This document shows, one piece after another, positions 4,063-34,326 of a stretch of 64,000 nucleotides of DNA (its first letter is position 1; the number at the start of each line of letters is the position of its first letter). The notes beneath the pieces were generated by a model that ran no database searches, was not told the DNA's origin, and saw only the letters and a program-made list of their open reading frames with translations. A program made the translations under genes and the position numbers. The DNA comes from Microbotryum violaceum (taxonomy: Eukaryota): positions 372,001 to 436,000 of the forward strand of contig CDLV01000014.1 of the NCBI GenBank assembly GCA_001244265.2, given 5' to 3'.

Positions 4063-4970
4063 TCGGGGTGTTACTCTTCTTAGAGAAGGCAATGTCATAG
4101 ATAATATTTTTGGACATGGGACACGCACCGACGTGGTGCTACGGGCCAGCTTGAAAGGTTTGAGGGGCGGCCTCCGATGAGCGCTTGAAGTGATGCTTGT
4201 CATGGGAGAGGAGCCCCATGCGCGGCTCGCAGATGGTTTTCATTGTGAGAAGCAACTCGAACGCGAGCCAAGCCTTCCGCCAGCTCCGCCGGCGGCCAGA
4301 AGCGGCTCCGATGGCTCCGCCAGCTTTTGGGATCTGTCGGCAGGTTGTTGGATGAGCATTCAAACTGTAAAATTCGCAGAACCTAATTTGAATTCGAACA
4401 GGCACGCCCAGATCTAGGTTGCAATTGGGTGAGAAAACAACGTTTTCGAGCGCGTGTGCAGGTTCAGCATCTCGTTCGGTGAAGTTTTTATTTACAACAG
4501 GGGTGCAAAAATTCATCCTGATGCAGTCTTTTGTGTCATCGTAGGACTCACGCTGTCATTGAACTGCCGGGAACGCGGCGATGAACACGTTGTGAATTTC
4601 CGGGCCTGTAGCGGCGCCCGACGAATCGAGCCCAACTCGGCTCCCTTGATCCCTTGATCAAATCCCTTCAAGGTCGACTCGGAGTCGTCGGCCCACTGGA
4701 CTGCTTCTGTTGATTATCCCCACACCTTTTTCGACGACACGACGTCCACGCCGACTTGGCTCCGACTTCGTCTTCCTCAACAGGACAACCTTTTTTTTCC
4801 TGCCAGCTGCTGCTGGACGTCGGATTGGTTCCCACGTCGTCGTCTCGTCGTCACTTTCGGTGCCCAGCCCCCCCCCCGCCAGCAACTCCGAGTCCACGCG
4901 TCGCGTCAAGGCGGGACTGCATTACGGGCGGCCTCCAAGCCAGCAGCTGGAGCGTCGAGCCCGAGAAGCA

Positions 4971-7900
4971 ATGTTGCTCTACGATGAAGACTACGACGAC
5001 GACAGTCTACCTGCTCCGAATACGAATACGTCTGCTTTCCCCGCCCGTGTGCCTTCGCCTGCGTTGTCGACCGCGTCCTCGTCCGGCAAGAGTGGTCGTA
5101 GCACCAGAAGTGGAGCGCCGTCGAGGCCGCCGAGGTCGTTGCTCCGTTCGCCGGTGATCGGGGCCGCACAGTCCCCTTTGGCCACTCCGCCCGCCGTCTT
5201 CTCCTCCACCTCGAGCCTGGCCTCTTCACCTTACCTCCAGTCTCCGGCTTTGTTTGGTGCGACCGCGTCCCCTGCTCCTTCAACGGCAAGTCCCAGCCTG
5301 CTCCAACCGGGTGCTCGCGGCGCCGGCGTTAACAGCAGCCGCGCCGGCAACTTGTTCTCCTCCCAATCGAGCCTCGGCGCCGGCGTCAACCGCCAGCCGC
5401 CCGTTTCGGCGCCATCTTCATCGGCGGTCTCGCTGCAAGCCTCGACGTCGCAACATCCCATCAATCCGGAGAATTCGTGCGATCGACTGGCAACCGAACT
5501 CTACTCGGACGCGTCAATCCCGCCTAGCTCCGCGTACGAGGTGGAGCGGTATCATCGCACGACCGAACCTCTCAGACTAGACCCGTCTCGTCAGTCGAGC
5601 CACACTTCGCCAAAAATACACGACGACGAAGGGCGCAACGAAGCGAGTTCGGCGACGACTCTAAAGGGGAATATGTTTCCAGCATCAAGGCATACTCAGC
5701 CTTCGTCGCCTCCCCCGGATATGTCTTCCTCGAGTTCGCAACGAGCGATTGCGCCCAGTACTTCGACCATTACCACTTTCCCATCTAGACCCATCTCGCC
5801 GTCGTCCTCGCTGCGGTTGTCACAGGAAGGAGGGCCAAGTTCGCTTTCGAGGAAGAATTCAACCGCGCAGAGCAGGGGCAGGGATTCGCCGTCGTTGATG
5901 CGCATCTCCAACTCGACACAGCGTGAGTCTATGATCCTGTGATTGGTTCGGGGAGATTGCACTCGCGTAGACAGGACTAATCTCGTTCACCGCTGTAGAC
6001 ATGCGCGATCTGGCCAAAGGGAAACGAACCCGGAGAGACGGAAGTCAGACTTCGCAATCGATCGGGAGTAGGAATAGGAACAGCGTAATCAGTCTGGCGA
6101 GTGTTATGTCCAGTACCGGTAATTCGATATATGAGGACGCTATTGAGGGGGATTGGACATCGGTCGATGACGGGGAGAGGTCGGGAGAAGAAGACGATAG
6201 CGAGGATCAGGCGGGGGATGAAACAGCGCAGGCGATTCCAGAAGGTGGGGGAGGGGGTGCGAAAACGTAGACGCCTGTAGGCAGGTCGATGGCGCTAACG
6301 TGTAGGTGTTGTCGCCTTCCCACAGACGCCAACTTGGGCATCGGACAGGCGTCTTCCTCGTCGATGCCTACGGCCGCCGCCTCGATGGATCACCCAGCGA
6401 CTCTGAATCAGTTCTCACCCATTTTGAGCGCGAGCTTCGACATCGCTTCGATCAATCCCGACTCTCTGCAACGACGCATCTCATTCGACTCTGCACGTTC
6501 CATGACTGAGCGTCGAGCGAGTCTCCATGCGGGTTATGGCTCCTCGCTCACCTCGAGCCAGTCCAAACGAGTTTCCCTCACCCAACCGGGTCCGACCGTC
6601 ATCCCGCTTCGCCGGTATTCGGGTGCTTTTAACCCACGGTCGTCGACGCCGGATTTTGGCTCTTCGAAAGGCTCCAATGCATCCGATCATGATCACTCGA
6701 ACACCCTCGAACCGACCCTCAGCCCTCGACGCGCCTCTTTCCTCCCCAAGCCGCTCGTTTTGACCCCTGCTCGAACGCTCGTGGCGCCATTGACGACGAC
6801 GAGCAGCGCGAACGTCGCGAGAAGAGGCTCAATCTCCCCTACCCTTGGGTCTTCGAACGATTGGAGACGATCGACCGATTTCTACAACCTCAATGGGGCA
6901 GTGTCACATTCTCGTCGCTCGAGCTCCGATGTCGACGGCCCGGTTCTATCAACTAGTCGACGCCAGTCCACGATCGGCTACGTGGGACCGCAACGAGACA
7001 GCATCGTCTCGGCCGGTGGCAGCAGTCAGCAAACTCACCTGAGTCAGACAGGCAGCTCGGGCGGTGGCGGTGGCGGTGCGTACGGTCAAAAGTGGACGGA
7101 GCGACGGAAACGTAGCGTCAGTGAGGACACGGGTCAAACTCGTACGAGCGAGAGCTTCGGTATCGAGGGACGACAACCCACCTCGGGCGAAAGTCCAGAT
7201 TCAAGCGTCAGCGGGTGGAGTGAGGAGCGTGCGACTGGACCTGATGCTACACCTAGTGGACTGGCGGAGGCGAAGAGTGGCTCGGGCGATCGCGGCAGCC
7301 CTTCGTTGACCGACAAGGAGTGGGAGCATGAGCTCGTACGAAGAGGGACTACGTCTTTGGATGTCGTTCCTGAGAGTGCGGATATCAGCATGGTCAAGAA
7401 CAAGCAGAGATCCCGCGATGCGCAGCACATAATTCCGGTGACGCCTTCGATTGAGCTGTCGCAAGCCTCGCCTGTCCGAGGCGAGTCTGGACTGGGCATC
7501 ACTCGCTATTTGAATGAGAACGACAACGAGGAGGTCAATCTCTTGTCGTTGCCGAACAACCGCGACATTGAGACCGAGTTTCCGACACCACCACCGACCA
7601 TCCCTTTGCCCGGTTTGCCTCGTAGCGCTTCCCAAATCGCGATAGAAGAAGCCGTGCCCAGACCGCCTCGCAAGGACAGTTACAATGCTGGATATCGTGG
7701 GCTGAGTATTTATGACGAGAACTGGGACGGTTCGATCGTCATCCCCTCCACTCCGAGCACCATCGGGGCCGGCACACCGTCACCGGCCAACTCGCCTCTG
7801 ATCGCTCTGTCGCCGCAAAGTCAACCGAACGGCTTCTTCTCCCGAGGTCGTGAGGCCACAGCCGTTGGTATGAGCCCGACTGAAGCTGCAGCGGTGAACC

Positions 7901-24566: not shown

Positions 24567-27516
24567 TCACTTGGATGGAGGATCTGTGGCGCAATTAATC
24601 CCGGGGCTCATTTTAGCTTGTAAATTCTCGACCGAGTTGGGCCCGGAGGCAAAAACGCTCACCTTTTCCTTTCCCGATCATGACCCGCTTTCCCTTCGAA
24701 GGAACGTCGTCGGCGAGAATCCAGAGCCAAGCATAGCCTATAGGTAGACCCAGACGCATCAACAGCTGCCTCTACAAGGGTGCAGAGTGGGGTTGAGGGC
24801 TTACCAGGAGGATAATACGTCGGTCCTTGAGGACCTTGAATAGTAATCTTTCCATTATCGGTCGAAATCACCCTCAATTCAACCCAGCGTTGGTTCATGT
24901 GCACGCCATGGGTCGAGTAACCGATATCAATGATGACCGCGCGGATCTTCTTGGTCCCACTTGGGACCTTGTAGGGGAAAGCGTACTTAGCCTTGTATTG
25001 GATCTTCTTGGGTTGACCGGAGAACGTGGGGCGAGACTTGGACATGTAAGGTGGCCGAAGGAATTCGGTGTTGTATCTGTGTGCGTGCCTCGCATGGTCG
25101 GCACTCAGTTACGATCCCCGGATCGAAAGGTCTGTAACAGAACACCCACCTCGTTGCGTAGGTCCTCGTCTCGACCTGTCAAGGAAAGGAGATGAAACAT
25201 TGATGAGATTGACAGAGGGACGCGAATATGACCCTTGCATGCTACGTACCTTGCCGTTGGGGTTGGAACCCGCGATAAAAATCGAGCCATCCGGAACCAG
25301 AGTTGCCGACGAATGGTAGAGTCGTTCGGTCTTGGAAGAAGGGAAGTTGGTACTGAAGCGAGAGCCCGACGCCGCAACAGGGTCGTACAAGGTAGGTCGT
25401 AACCTTGGGTTTCCGGCGTTGCTCAGTCCTGTCATGTTCGCGACATTGCCGTAGCCAGCAACTCCTGTCCCAGCGCCGTTCACCAGCAAGACTGCGCAGT
25501 CCAGTTGAAGGTCAGCGCTTTCCCAATGACGGTCAAACTCGTGGCTTCGGGTGGTCAAGGCTTACCTTTACCATCAGGAGTAAGAATGGCATCCCCCATG
25601 AGACGTGATTCGGGCATCTGCTCAACCTGCCAACCGCCTACAGCCTTTGTCCCACTAATCTTGAGTCGCGCGCACTGAGTCGAGGTCGGGCTCTGAGCGC
25701 TGAGCAACCAAGGTGAGTCGAGGTTCTGGGTCGACCCTCCACAGATCAAGATCTCGGTCGCAAACCCGTTCGCGATCGTCAGGGGAAGAAGCGCTGATGC
25801 ACCTGAGCTCGGGTAGTTTGCGACGACTCCATTGGGGAACTACAAAGAAGAGCAAAATATTCGGTCAAGAGTCGGTCGATGTGATTCAAGGATCTAAGCC
25901 TAAGTCGGAGACGTACAGCCGGAAGTCTATATTCTTGATTGTTTACCCAGTCGTATATAGTGTTGATCTTGTTGGCAGCCACGAAGATGTAACCACTGCA
26001 GTCGTTATTTTGTGTCAGCATCCATGGGGTGTCGCACCCATATGCCCATGGCGACTCACGTCTTTGGAAGGGAGAACGAGATGGGAAACAGATTCGAGTT
26101 AAGTGCATCTAAGGTGAGAAAGAGTGGCCGGCGTCAATGAAAGTGTAGCGCTCCAGTTTCAGCCTCGTGAGCGCACCTTGCAAGAATTTGAAAAATATCT
26201 GCTTTCCATTTCCCTTGGGAGGAAAGAACTCGATCGTTGGATTGTCAATGTCGGGAGCATTGTTGTAACCACCCCTGATGCATCCTCCAATGATGATGAC
26301 GGAGCCATCATGCAAGCGCACGGTCGAAGGGTACCATCTCTTGGACGTCAAGCGGACCGTTTTGGGGAACTCCTGGACCTGACAGTTGCCCCCGTTGCAT
26401 GGAGTGAACATCCGAATGGCAGCGATACCGTTCGCAGTCGCATTGTTCGCAGCGTGCTCGATGGGATTGCCGCCGACGCTGATCAATGTGCCGTTGCTGA
26501 GCCAACCGCCTCCGGCACTGGGTGATCCAAAGCGGGCGAGTCAGATCCCGGTCGACGACTAAGTGGAAGCCACGCGGGAGCGCTGGGGAATATCTGCCTT
26601 GTCACAGCACAAAGCTTACCAGAATGAGTTCGTGAGAAGGTTGAGCGCTCGAGATTTTCCGGTGCTGATCGTGTAAATTTGACCCCACGCACTGTGGCCG
26701 TTGACTTGAAGCGGGTTGTTCTCGGCCTTGTCGAAGCTATGGCCGTAACTCTGTTTAGCAAGCAGGAGAGGGCCGGGGGAAGAGCTTGCCAGTCCCTAGC
26801 AGCAGAGTCTGCTTACACTACGAGAGCAAGATATCAACATCAGCTGGGACGCTCATGACACCCGCTTGCGATGCTTTGACTTACTCTGATGATGGTTCGA
26901 TCCGATGTGCCGTATGTGCAGACAGCGGGGAGCCAATTGGTCAGAGTTTTCGCGGGAGCGTGATGGGTAGGGGTTTACTCACAAGTAGCTCGTCGTCACT
27001 GACGACACTGACTTGCACTGTGAAGACAAACAATTTTGGACGTCTCAGGTCAGTTCCTGGGCACGAGCCCCAGCACATTTCATGATCCGCGATGATGCTG
27101 GAGGCTTGAAGCTTCAGGCCGGGTCTCGGCGAGAACGTCTCCCACAGGAGCCAACCGCACTCACTACCGCCGATACCAAGTTTCTTCCCATTCTTGAAAG
27201 ACGAAGGCCCGGACCAAGCCTTGCCAAGAGCACGCTTGTGGCGCACAAACCTCCTGCGGTGGCTGCGGAGCTGGAGCCCTGTCGATTCGGGCTTGACGTC
27301 GCGCTCGATCGTCAACGAGTGGCGCTCCACGCTCGTGTGAGAGTCGTGCGACGGAGCAAGCACTCTACCGCCAAGGGAAGCCAACGCATCCGAGTGAGTG
27401 AACGCAAGGACATCACCACCGAGTGTAGACGTAAGGAGAAGCAATGTAGCCAGGGTCTGAAGGAGGAGGCGATGCACTGGGCTGCACGGACGCCGAGATT
27501 GGACCGAGGTGAGCAT
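24567..27516 (-). CDS. Secreted copper radical oxidase / glyoxal oxidase (CAZy AA5_1), many exons
   Basis: Hydrophobic signal-like N-terminus; all five active-site residues present: NSFC|AGG (Cys), RWYPS (Tyr), RLYHSSATL (Tyr, His), GYSTHG (His); also FDKAENNPL, NLFP, ILICGG, RLMGD, PPGY. Confidence 0.92.
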
Positions 27517-27912
27517 GAAAGGGAGCGTGCGAGCAGCGCTGAGTGGCAGATGGATGAACGAGTGTGGGGGCGCAAAAGACGAGTGCGGGTTGGGATCCCA
27601 ACGGAGAGAAAAGAATGAGAAGGAGCGACGAAGGTGGGAGAGAAGGAACCAGGATGAAGACAAGGTATATATGGAAAGAAAGGAACACATTTGTCGGCTT
27701 ATGCCGCAGGTGCACTGTCTCACCCGGATCGCGAACTCAACGACTCGCTCAAGGGGCCTGAGCACCTCCGCCGCGGCTGCGCGCTTCTAGCGGCGGCCCG
27801 AGCGCACTCGCTCGATCGCGAAGTCAACTGAACCAACGTCAAGTCCTTCTTCTCGGTCGCACCATCTCACCTTCGCCGCCTACTGCTGGGCTCTTCAATC
27901 GACGCTCCAAAC

Positions 27913-31847: not shown

Positions 31848-34326
31848 CTACGCAATGCCTTGCCACCCCAACGCTGTCCCCCACCTCCACATCCTCTCAA
31901 CCATCTTAGCCCTCTTTTCCGGTTTGGCCCTAGCTCCTTCATCTTCAATCGCCCTCACATCCTCCAAGAACGCCTGCCTCAACTGCGTATCCCGACTAGG
32001 GAAGATGCCCCTCTTGGCGTAATTCCTCAGGTTCGCCAAACACAACAAGACCAAACCCTGCGTCAACTTTTCCTTTTCACCGATTCGATCACCCTTAGAG
32101 ATTTTGGTCGGCGCCTCTATATCCCTAGGAGGCGCCAACAACAAATCCAACTGCCTCGTACTCAACCAACACCTCTTACCCCACTCCTTTCTCCTCTTCT
32201 TACTACTCCCATCCCTTCTCGTAAAACCCTTGATCCAGTTACCGAACGCGAAAAGGACGAGGATCGAAGGTGCAACACCTACGAATCCAAAGGTGAGTTG
32301 TTGGGAGCGGAGCATTTTTTCGATACCATCCATGGCGAGGGCGACGTCGACTTTGACTTTTTGCACTTGGATTAGGAGGGTGCGGATCAAGGAGCCGGAG
32401 ATAGCGGATCGGAGGGGGGACTTTGGGGCGTTGGGGAATAGAGTGAAGGTGTCGGGATCAGCTTGGGGTCAGCATCTAAGGCTGTAAAGGTATGACTCAC
32501 TTTGAGATCATGTTCGAACGCTTTCAAAACGGGTGTCAAATCCCCCGCTCGAACCTTATCCCTCAAATCAACCAATTGCGCCTCCGAAAGCTTGTACTCG
32601 TCCCTCCCGAAATCAATCACCATCCTCTCCAAACTCTGAGCGCTCGACACAAATGGACCCCGACTAATCAGCCTCATCGATCAACACCCCAAAAACAACA
32701 AGAGGCCTTGCCTCCTCAGCTAGAACTCACATCCAAATCACTCTTCAACGTCTCCTTGCCCGTCAAACTCATGCCTCCTTCACCCCGCACGGTCTCAAAG
32801 ATGCCCTTGACAGGTTCCAAAACCCAATCCATGATGAACCTTTGGACCGTATCAACCGCGTCCCTAGCGTAGTGCAGCAAATCGTGGCGCGAATTGTAGA
32901 TCGTTCGGCCGATACCGTAAGAGACGAGAGGGACGGCGAGGAGGTAGGGCCAGGCGCGGGTGAGGAAGGGGGGTCGGGAGACTTGCTCGAGTTGGGTTTC
33001 GAGCGTCTTGGCTTGGGCGACCATCGTTCTCGTGAGGAGGGTGTGTAACACTCGAGCACATTCTTGCGCTGATGATGGCTTGCTCGCTTCGGGTGGGGAT
33101 GGCAGGTTCGAGGAAGAATTGGGCGAGGTCGCGATTGCTGACGTGAGATGAACCAAGGTGGTCCAACATGCATCCTTGAGCGCGTTCAACGTCGCAGGTT
33201 CTTGATCCGTCATCGTCAACACAGCCGGTAGAGTCCTCTCGGAACGATTCTTGCCGTCATCGTCGTTCGCTTTTTGTGGCTCTTGGTGATCTCCATCAAT
33301 CAAAGGCTGAGGCGCCAATGTCAATTCGCCAATGCTGATGGCCAGACTTTGCCTCGTCTGACGAATCGTCTTGCGGCGATGAAAGATCTCTTGCTTCGTC
33401 AAAGCCAACGGGGAGAGCGTGAGGAAGAACAAGGAGCGGGTCGTCTTTTTGGCCAGTCGAGTGGCATGGGAGAAGGAGACGCCCCCACTTGAGGTGACGG
33501 CCAGAGTCGAGTCGTCGTTTTCAAATGGATCGAGAACATCCGTTGGGGAAGCTACACCCGTCGAGGTGGCAAGGTGAGGGAAGATGGCGGTGACGAGGAG
33601 CGAAGGGGGAAGAGCGTCTCGGTAGGTCGACCAAGAGAGATAGGACGGCGCAGGTCGACTCGAGTGCAGGGCGGTGGTGGTGAGATCGCGCAGTCGGGTC
33701 ACCAACGTCATGGAGAGCGAGACCAGCCTCGATGGGGTAGCTGTTGGTGGAGGAAGTGCGTCAGTCGGGGAGTGCTTTGCAAGTTGCTCTGCGCGAGAGA
33801 GCTCACTCTGCAACAAGTACCATCCCTGATCCCAAGCATCGGTTTCTCTGCCGGCCCACCACTCGTCCTCTTGGGCAAGGTCACTCGCCTGCTGCATCAG
33901 TTGCTTGAGCACCAGACCATAGGCCGAGATGGTCATATGCGCGAGAGTAACATATTCGATCGACTGTAGCTGGTTCGATGATTGTGCCTGAGCTTGAAGG
34001 GAGGGCCGATCATTCGAAGAGGTTGATAACGATGACGATGACGATGACGATGGGAAGGCCTGATCGAGCAACGAGGCGAGCTCGAACGACGAAGCGGGGT
34101 GGGAAGGATGCAGTTTGGCTAGGATGGACCGCAAGGAGGAGGCACGATCATGGATCACCTGAGCACGGCTTGCAATTCCATCCACGGCTGTGGGCTGGGA
34201 AGCTACAGGTGGTGTGGGTGACGAGGACGAGTCGAGTTCGGACTCATCGGCGGCTTCGAGAAGAAGAGGGGTCAGACTTGACAGGGAAGAGCCGAGTGAA
34301 GCGGCCAAGTCACTGGCGTAGGTCAT
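31848..34326 (-). CDS. NCA2: Nuclear control of ATPase protein 2 (mitochondrial outer membrane)
   Basis: RPPFLTRAWP, FIMDWVLEPVKGIFETVR, LKSDLD|SLERMVIDF, LIRTLLIQVQKVKVDVALAMDGIEKMLRSQQLTFGFVGVAP. Confidence 0.9.

Follow-up and report, generated by a model that had tools for sequence, protein, structure and literature searches.

The stretch of DNA analysed here, referred to as the window, consists of 64,000 nucleotides (nt) of Microbotryum violaceum (assembly GCA_001244265.2, contig CDLV01000014.1, positions 372,001 to 436,000 of the forward strand). Its minus strand carries MVLG_03027 of Microbotryum lychnidis-dioicae, a gene whose product is predicted to be a secreted-type, glyoxal-oxidase-like copper radical oxidase of family AA5_1, and whose public model is KDE06681.1 from strain p1A1 Lamole (P0006 below). 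The window encodes P0006 exactly except at one site, where a single Ile codon is almost certainly assembled from three exons, two of them only one nucleotide long. As reconstructed here, the gene has 14 exons, the third and fourth of which are these single nucleotides, and 13 GT-AG introns of 64-147 nt.

Layout of the splice sites

An earlier reading of the sequence alone had placed three back-to-back introns at this site, separated by a lone A and a lone T, and all of its letters and coordinates matched the minus-strand sequence. The features of the site, given in the order of the gene with the evidence for each, are as follows.

26983..27017, minus strand: exon 2, 35 nt, coding for (M)QVSVVSDDELL, 3′ end ...GAG CTA CTT at 26983 in phase 0 (sequence, transcripts, spliced open reading frame (ORF))
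26886..26982, minus strand: intron A, 97 nt, GTGAGT...ATCAG, phase 0, 5′ of the Ile codon (sequence, path enumeration)
26885, minus strand: one-nucleotide exon A (exon 3), base 1 of the Ile codon, CAG/A/GTAAGT (transcripts and the sole canonical path)
26818..26884, minus strand: intron B, 67 nt, GTAAGT...CGTAG, phase 1, separating A from T (sequence, path enumeration)
26817, minus strand: one-nucleotide exon T (exon 4), base 2 of the Ile codon, TAG/T/GTAAGC (letter present in mRNA, placed by the GT-AG rule)
26737..26816, minus strand: intron C, 80 nt, GTAAGC...CATAG, phase 2 (sequence, transcripts)
26620..26736, minus strand: exon 5, 117 nt, C as base 3 of the Ile codon, then FDKAENNPL...NSF and the TG of a conserved Cys codon (sequence, transcripts, ORF)
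26737..26750, minus strand: 14 nt annotated as coding, which with the C at 26736 give SYGHS, intronic in RNA (public models compared with transcripts)

An alternative acceptor, ...AACAG at 26751, is also present in the sequence, and its use keeps the frame and produces SYGHS. The arrangement of an acceptor, one base and a donor (YAG-N-GTRAG) was counted 5 times on the two strands of the window, where 200 first-order Markov simulations predict 5.2, and 8 of the 200 simulated windows contained two such units at a distance of 40-200 nt. The double pattern by itself is poor evidence and is not remarkable as bare sequence; the site stands above chance because RNA, a single canonical splice path and the register of homologues agree on it. 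Each of the remaining occurrences, at 5922 on the plus strand and at 33807 and 4552 on the minus strand, has a long open frame directly upstream, and they look like ordinary exon ends rather than one-nucleotide exons.

Transcript contigs across the junction

Transcript data were taken as assembled contigs from four sequencing runs, of which X10 and X11 belong to the same study, X2 to a different study and X1 to a further one. The contigs of X10 (2270 nt, depth 50) and X11 (2255 nt, depth 32.3) matched the window with no mismatch and lacked all 10 ordinary introns, each skip reading CT..AC on the plus strand and thus GT..AG on the strand of the gene. Since every ordinary intron was spliced out, these contigs represent transcripts. 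In both of them, position 26983 was joined to 26736, with 246 nt skipped and exactly the letters AT between the two ends.

X2 came from a relative that differs at 106 of 1837 aligned exon letters (about 6% diverged). Its spliced contig (2223 nt) joined 26983 to 26735 with AAT on the plus strand, which is ATT on the strand of the gene, a synonymous third-base change that still encodes Ile. The X1 contig was unspliced, covered 26702-26924 with 1 mismatch, and independently confirms that the A and the T lie apart in the genome. Thus the junction containing both bases, proposed in the sequence-only reading as a check, was present in all three spliced runs, ATT standing for AT in the diverged relative, and the A at 26885, the T at 26817 and the C at 26736 are read together in the transcript contigs as ATC, giving ELL-I-FDK. 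The junction named there as its opposite, 26983 to 26750 by removal of 26982-26751, occurred in none of the four runs, and no form lacking the A or lacking the T was found among their contigs.

Partially spliced intermediates had also been proposed as a check, and one was found. A short X2 contig (record 10, 151 nt) leads without a break out of exon 2, across intron A and up to 26885, and is then joined to 26735 with two letters between. It is an RNA that retains intron A after loss of the downstream intron or introns, and it locates the A at 26885, immediately past the end of intron A. Its depth was 2.9, compared with 14.2 for the full spliced form in the same run.

It had further been suggested that skipping of the single bases could act as a switch at the level of splicing. 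In such a regulated switch, which would be an addition to the tandem exons and not a replacement for them, base skipping or intron retention would shift the frame, lead to mRNA decay and turn the enzyme off. The consequences for the protein would be severe, as skipping of A or T leaves 179 amino acids (aa) and skipping of both leaves 237 aa, while retention of intron A, B or C leaves 142, 139 or 130 aa. The intron-A-retaining contig would suit this proposal, and so would the late induction during infection of glyoxal-oxidase-domain genes as a class, described in the available parts of PMC4469406 and PMC5919739. However, that contig is equally expected of ordinary pre-mRNA, and no skipped form appeared in the contigs of the four runs, which cannot measure ratios. 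The expectation of truncated protein therefore stood while the regulatory role found no support, and we consider such a switch unlikely; the arrangement looks constitutive, with no known regulatory role.

Placement of the A and the T

The positions of the two bases were determined by exhaustive enumeration of all colinear, exact decompositions of exon 2, AT and exon 5 on the genome, allowing introns of at least 20 nt. Exactly one decomposition uses GT/GC-AG or AT-AC introns throughout, and it consists of the three introns of 97, 67 and 80 nt and the two one-nucleotide exons. Decompositions with at most two introns number 23, all of which require non-canonical inner ends, and 26817 is the only position for the T that yields GT-AG introns. 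Three properties expected of a one-nucleotide exon were thus observed for both bases. They are not contiguous in the genome with each other or with the neighbouring exons, the distances being the lengths of the three introns; each is flanked directly by an AG acceptor and a GT donor; and their omission breaks the frame or the register, cutting the ORF as described above, while 40 of 41 homologue rows carry no insertion at this point.

Taken together, we hold with high confidence that MVLG_03027 contains two one-nucleotide exons, bounded by three complete U2-type GT-AG introns that lie in phases 0, 1 and 2 of one Ile codon. The sequence-only reading is confirmed in this respect and its central interpretation supported.

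Several points weigh against this interpretation. The evidence comes from assembled contigs and not from raw reads, and assembly drops rare variants, so that use of the 26751 acceptor, or skipping of a base, in a minor isoform could go unseen. The runs are not recorded as RNA, their RNA nature being read from the splice pattern, and X10 and X11 come from the same study. For the T, it is the GT-AG rule that fixes the position at 26817. In record 10 of X2, the shorter side of the joint has only 24 letters, fewer than the 31 of our bridging rule, and the contig is from a species that could have a 2-nt exon at this locus. The branch sites described below are motif guesses. Finally, no RNA structure accounts for the accuracy of splicing, as the region showed no special fold (minimum free energy -74.8 kcal/mol against a shuffle mean of -77, z = 0.42).

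The letters AT could in principle have another origin: an assembly artefact, a 2-nt exon with non-canonical sites, an untemplated addition, or a strain in which A and T are adjacent. We were working with contigs, the 23 decompositions with arbitrary intron ends exist on paper, and A and T are apparently adjacent in M. intermedium. Yet the same letters were found in two runs at depths of 50 and 32, and a synonymous version of them in a diverged species; none of the 23 alternatives avoids a non-canonical inner splice site; over about 2.2 kb the X10 and X11 contigs agree with the window without a mismatch, and unspliced X1 carries the layout of the window; and in the partly spliced contig the A follows immediately on intron A. 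Such an origin is therefore highly improbable, and the tandem one-nucleotide exons are retained as the source of both letters.

Homologues and public gene models

The register of the protein at this site was examined in an alignment of 45 rows. A search of 1.84 billion proteins supplied 38 of them, namely those among its 150 best representatives with a match that begins early enough to span the site; the others are the proteins P0003-P0005 and four public models of the Microbotryum gene. In the 41 rows that do not model this gene, the column of the Ile holds I in 26, L in 6, V in 5, F in 3 and C in 1, and is hydrophobic in every row. The single insertion before this column, a K, is found in P0016, a paralogue from M. 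saponariae in which the SDDELL motif is followed by the extra K and then by V-LDK. This K may mark another mis-modelled micro-exon site in the paralogue.

Structure models gave a similar picture. In the model of P0003, the Ile falls in a strand (residues 95-99), and its 10-residue block has a mean predicted local distance difference test (pLDDT) score of 95. In that of P0006, the block containing SYGHS-FDK (131-140) has a mean of 50, compared with 91 and 86 in the neighbouring blocks. The earlier remark that a hydrophobic strand is expected before the DK motif is thus borne out, both by the I/L/V/F/C column and by the confident beta-strand in the P0003 model.

Among the public models, P0006 and P0007 (M. 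silenes-dioicae) read ELL-SYGHS-FDK, and P0001 (M. saponariae) has SYPHS at the same site. P0002 (M. intermedium, BQ2448_5643) skips the 35-nt exon 2 and reads through parts of two introns, which gives it about 50 spurious residues by comparison with window positions 26737-27164. All four of these models are wrong at the micro-exon site, as the sequence-only reading had forecast. The available text of PMC4469406 states that the Microbotryum genome pipeline flagged internal exons of at most 6 nt for manual review, and the frame-preserving SYGHS mis-model may be a result of that flag.

That the public annotation is nevertheless right, with one 232-nt intron (26982-26751) and SYGHS instead of Ile, is very improbable: although this reading is in frame with an open 630-aa ORF, has GT-AG ends and was adopted in P0006, P0007 and P0001, its joint is missing from four of four runs where all three spliced runs have AT or ATT, 40 of the 41 homologue rows lack an insertion there and pLDDT falls at SYGHS, the stretch varies (SYPHS in M. 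saponariae) while the next 39 residues are unchanged and differs in M. intermedium by a frame-breaking 1 nt, and the intron would exceed the longest other one of 147 nt and end at an AG about 4 nt past the only branch-like motif.

Remaining features of the gene

Spliced at the joints supported by RNA, the ORF encodes 626 aa, identical to P0006 except that Ile replaces SYGHS. The exon sizes are 352, 35, 1, 1, 117, 341, 49, 79, 274, 242, 26, 272 and 75 nt, followed by 17 coding nt to the stop. Outside the micro-exon site, the gene consists of the following.

27165..27516, minus strand: coding part of exon 1, 352 nt, ATG at 27516, 3′ end ...GGT A in phase 1 (joint 27017 to 27165 in X10, X11 and X2; ORF identical to P0006)
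27018..27164, minus strand: ordinary intron, 147 nt, GTGAGT...CACAG, with CTGAC 32 nt before the 3′ end (transcripts, ORF)
24567..26619, minus strand: rest of the gene, 9 further exons and 9 GT-AG introns of 64-102 nt (transcripts, ORF)

The transcript contigs extend to 27686, so that the 5′ untranslated region (UTR) is about 170 nt or more; within it, at 27554-27598, X2 has small insertions (C, CAG, GT) relative to the window. Besides the two single nucleotides, three further short exons were observed, of 26 nt (25150-25175), 49 nt (26060-26108) and 35 nt (26983-27017). The 26-nt exon was not placed by the aligner in X2, where it appears as 22 unaligned letters between 25078 and 25248. The last intron (24584-24662, 79 nt) is supported by RNA and leads to the C-terminus ...GKGKDPPSK, the same as in P0006, while the P0007 and P0001 models read through this intron and have different C-terminal ends.

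The assignment of the product is based on several lines of sequence comparison. A 44-residue query from exon 5 matched five proteins, and the cluster of the best match includes P0006 and the orthologues of M. silenes-dioicae and M. saponariae. The translation of 26109-26540 matched PF07250 (Glyoxal_oxid_N, E 1.4e-12) and that of 24659-25108 matched PF09118 (GO-like E-set domain, E 1.1e-15); precomputed annotations of P0001, the M. saponariae orthologue, and of P0002 contain the same two domains. The order PF07250 then PF09118 is the one by which AA5_1 was recognised. An enzyme of this kind would oxidise glyoxal or other aldehydes, with H2O2 as a product. We take the copper and radical site of AA5_1 enzymes to consist of a cross-linked Cys and Tyr, a Tyr-His pair and a further His, the role of each residue being presumed. 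In a 32-sequence alignment C173 and Y235 were invariant and Y479 and H480 nearly invariant, and the matching motifs align with PDB chain 9n3u_A. No paralogue of the gene was found within the window by tblastn, and no mention of MVLG_03027 was found in the open-access literature searched.

Splice signals and a possible mechanism

In length, introns A, B and C fit the 64-147 nt range of the 10 other introns of the gene, whereas the single annotated intron would be 232 nt. Their donors, GTGAGT, GTAAGT and GTAAGC, all have the form GTRAG, and weaker donors (GTGCGC, GTACGT, GTGGGT) occur in some of the other introns of MVLG_03027. Branch-like motifs could be pointed out in each of the three. Intron A has CTGAC 55 nt before its 3′ end and intron B has CTGAT 22 nt before its 3′ end, with no AG between motif and end in either case. 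The only such motif in intron C is CTAAA(C), about 18 nt before the AG that is used, and the AGs at 26752/26751 and 26750/26749, which lie only about 4-6 nt past it, are bypassed.

These features suggest how the site could be spliced. Each intron may be recognised singly, by intron definition, with the help of donors whose intron side is near consensus. One base between an acceptor and the next donor would leave no room for two adjacent spliceosomes; because the recognition sites overlap at this spacing, the three reactions would have to be sequential. Each YAG-N-GTAAG unit might then act like a ratchet point of recursive splicing, except that one base is left behind. The annotated acceptor AACAG at 26751 would be passed over, presumably because it lies only about 4 nt past the branch-like CTAAA(C), and the next AG, at a workable distance of about 18 nt, would be used in its place.

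Ordered splicing had been part of the sequence-only reading. The low-depth X2 contig, which has kept intron A and lost the downstream intron or introns, is a weak hint in its favour, and suggests that intron A can be the last to be removed.

Evolution of the introns

When P0002 of M. intermedium was compared with the window by tblastn, its ...TVVR-CK... aligned with ...ATCAG-A / T-GTAAG... and continued into intron C. A gap of 22 residues (66 nt) lies where the 67-nt intron B is found in the window, and there is a 1-nt length difference within the SYGHS stretch. Because it reads through the introns, this protein model retains degenerate information on the DNA, and to judge from it, M. intermedium probably has no intron B and carries a single 2-nt exon instead (AG-AT-GT), in which case intron B would have been gained in that micro-exon or precisely lost from it.

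More distant relatives were found among metagenome contigs, of which L039, L040, L060 (two genes) and L077 by eye resemble P0008 of Sporobolomyces koalae in this stretch. In these contigs a single intron lies 2 nt further downstream (...ATT T/GT..AG/AY GAC), in phase 1 of the next codon, and their upstream intron is shifted by 1 nt (AT/G compared with A/TG in Microbotryum). In L039:1080-1240, L060:1600-1880 and 4900-5060, and L077:1190-1360, this single intron, 2 nt downstream of Microbotryum intron C, falls in the Tyr codon after the Ile. Four other contigs (L034, L036, L037, L050) have no intron at this codon. Both introns that flank exon 2, itself short, therefore differ in position by 1-2 nt from one lineage to another, a pattern resembling intron sliding. 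Because distant relatives carry one intron 2 nt away, an intron near this codon is old, and Microbotryum has added to it.

Three other origins or readings of the introns were considered and rejected. The pairs of introns are no more alike than shuffled sequences (186, 336 and 336 of 500 shuffles reached the observed scores), which does not fit tandem duplication. No other copy of an intron was present in the window beyond chance matches of 10-11 nt, which gives an introner-like origin no support. A nested arrangement (stwintron) was discarded as well, the three introns lying side by side, each with a complete GT...AG in the genome.

Significance

The one-nucleotide exon as a kind is already known, and this smallest possible exon has been reported a few times, always singly. 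A tandem pair with three introns in one codon was found in no report within the literature searched: phrase searches of open-access full text, outside the scope of which lie subscription journals and supplements, including the exon lists for Coprinopsis and plants, returned no case of two consecutive one-nucleotide exons or of a codon cut by at least two introns. MVLG_03027 may be the first documented gene with two adjacent constitutive one-nucleotide exons, in which a 2-nt exon seems either to have acquired intron B or to have lost it precisely as the Microbotryum species diverged; we put this combined claim at about even chances. If it is true, 1 nt between an acceptor and the next donor suffices twice in succession, and M. 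intermedium (AG-AT-GT, presumed) and M. lychnidis-dioicae (AG-A-GT...AG-T-GT) are a natural pair of before and after states in which to study how an intron is born or lost and how splice sites are recognised at the physical limit.

In tandem one-nucleotide exons, a 3′ splice site, a whole exon and the next 5′ splice site share one spliceosome footprint, and they do so twice here. The locus is thus a natural substrate for three questions, namely intron definition without an exon, the order in which abutting introns are removed, and the choice of the correct AG. Additionally, intron gain, loss and sliding could be followed through a dated series of states, to which M. intermedium would contribute its apparent 2-nt exon and distant relatives their single intron at a distance of 2 nt. 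Frame-preserving annotation "fixes" such as SYGHS may conceal further cases of this kind.

Comparison with known systems

One-nucleotide exons have been described in plants and fungi. In the available text of PMC4674806 (Guo & Liu 2015), a constitutive one is reported for Arabidopsis APC11 with proof that includes mutagenesis, and in that of PMC8831610 (Yu et al. 2022) such exons are followed in APC11 and VPS55 across plants. A Fusarium CYP621A exon is called the second example overall and the first in fungi in the accessible part of PMC12940212 (2026), and in that of PMC12230235, a long-read annotation of Coprinopsis cinerea, 57 exons have 2 nt and 13 exons, in 13 genes, have 1 nt. The statement in the sequence-only reading that such exons exist but are very rare, made with APC11 in mind, holds for their existence, and "very rare" needs updating in view of VPS55, CYP621A and the 13 Coprinopsis genes.

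The plant exons resemble the ones described here in that a single base lies between AG and GT inside a mis-annotated "intron", keeps the frame, and is followed by a strongly conserved GTRAGT donor. For APC11, the authors of PMC4674806 argue, in the available text, for intron definition with removal of the introns one after another. As far as those plant reports are available, APC11 and VPS55 each have one such exon, whereas MVLG_03027 has two in a row and three introns that cut one codon; their evidence includes mutagenesis, while ours consists of transcript contigs alone. The Fusarium case, as accessible, is similar: in a fungal gene, a one-nucleotide exon contributes a single base to a codon of a conserved motif, public models get the gene wrong, and the exon is supported by public reads. 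It differs in being a single G exon (AG-G-GT) of an ascomycete, and the accessible part of the paper contains no consecutive one-nucleotide exons. Coprinopsis is, like Microbotryum, a basidiomycete with many micro-exons, and the accessible report indicates that very short exons are a regular minority in basidiomycete genes; its count of 13 exons in 13 genes, however, leaves no gene there with two.

The closest mechanistic parallel is recursive splicing. A ratchet point is a zero-length exon, at which the acceptor abuts a donor that is regenerated after the upstream step. The units in MVLG_03027 likewise combine an acceptor with a strong donor that follows almost immediately (YAG-N-GTAAG), and the intervening stretch would be lost stepwise. 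In contrast to ratchet points, one base is kept at each step, which places the units outside this class; the introns are short (67-97 nt), so that this is not a device for the removal of a long intron; and a 5′-to-3′ order is not evident, as one contig suggests that the first intron can go last.

Fungal stwintrons, as described in the accessible part of PMC5587772, are also complex intervening sequences removed by consecutive splicing reactions. In a stwintron, an internal intron splits the donor, branch site or acceptor of an external one, which comes into being only once the first has been excised. In MVLG_03027 no intron interrupts the splice signal of another, and the locus falls outside that class too. 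The discordance of 1-2 nt between the intron positions of Microbotryum and those of L039, L060 and L077 is, in turn, similar to the 1-nt intron shifts of fungi.

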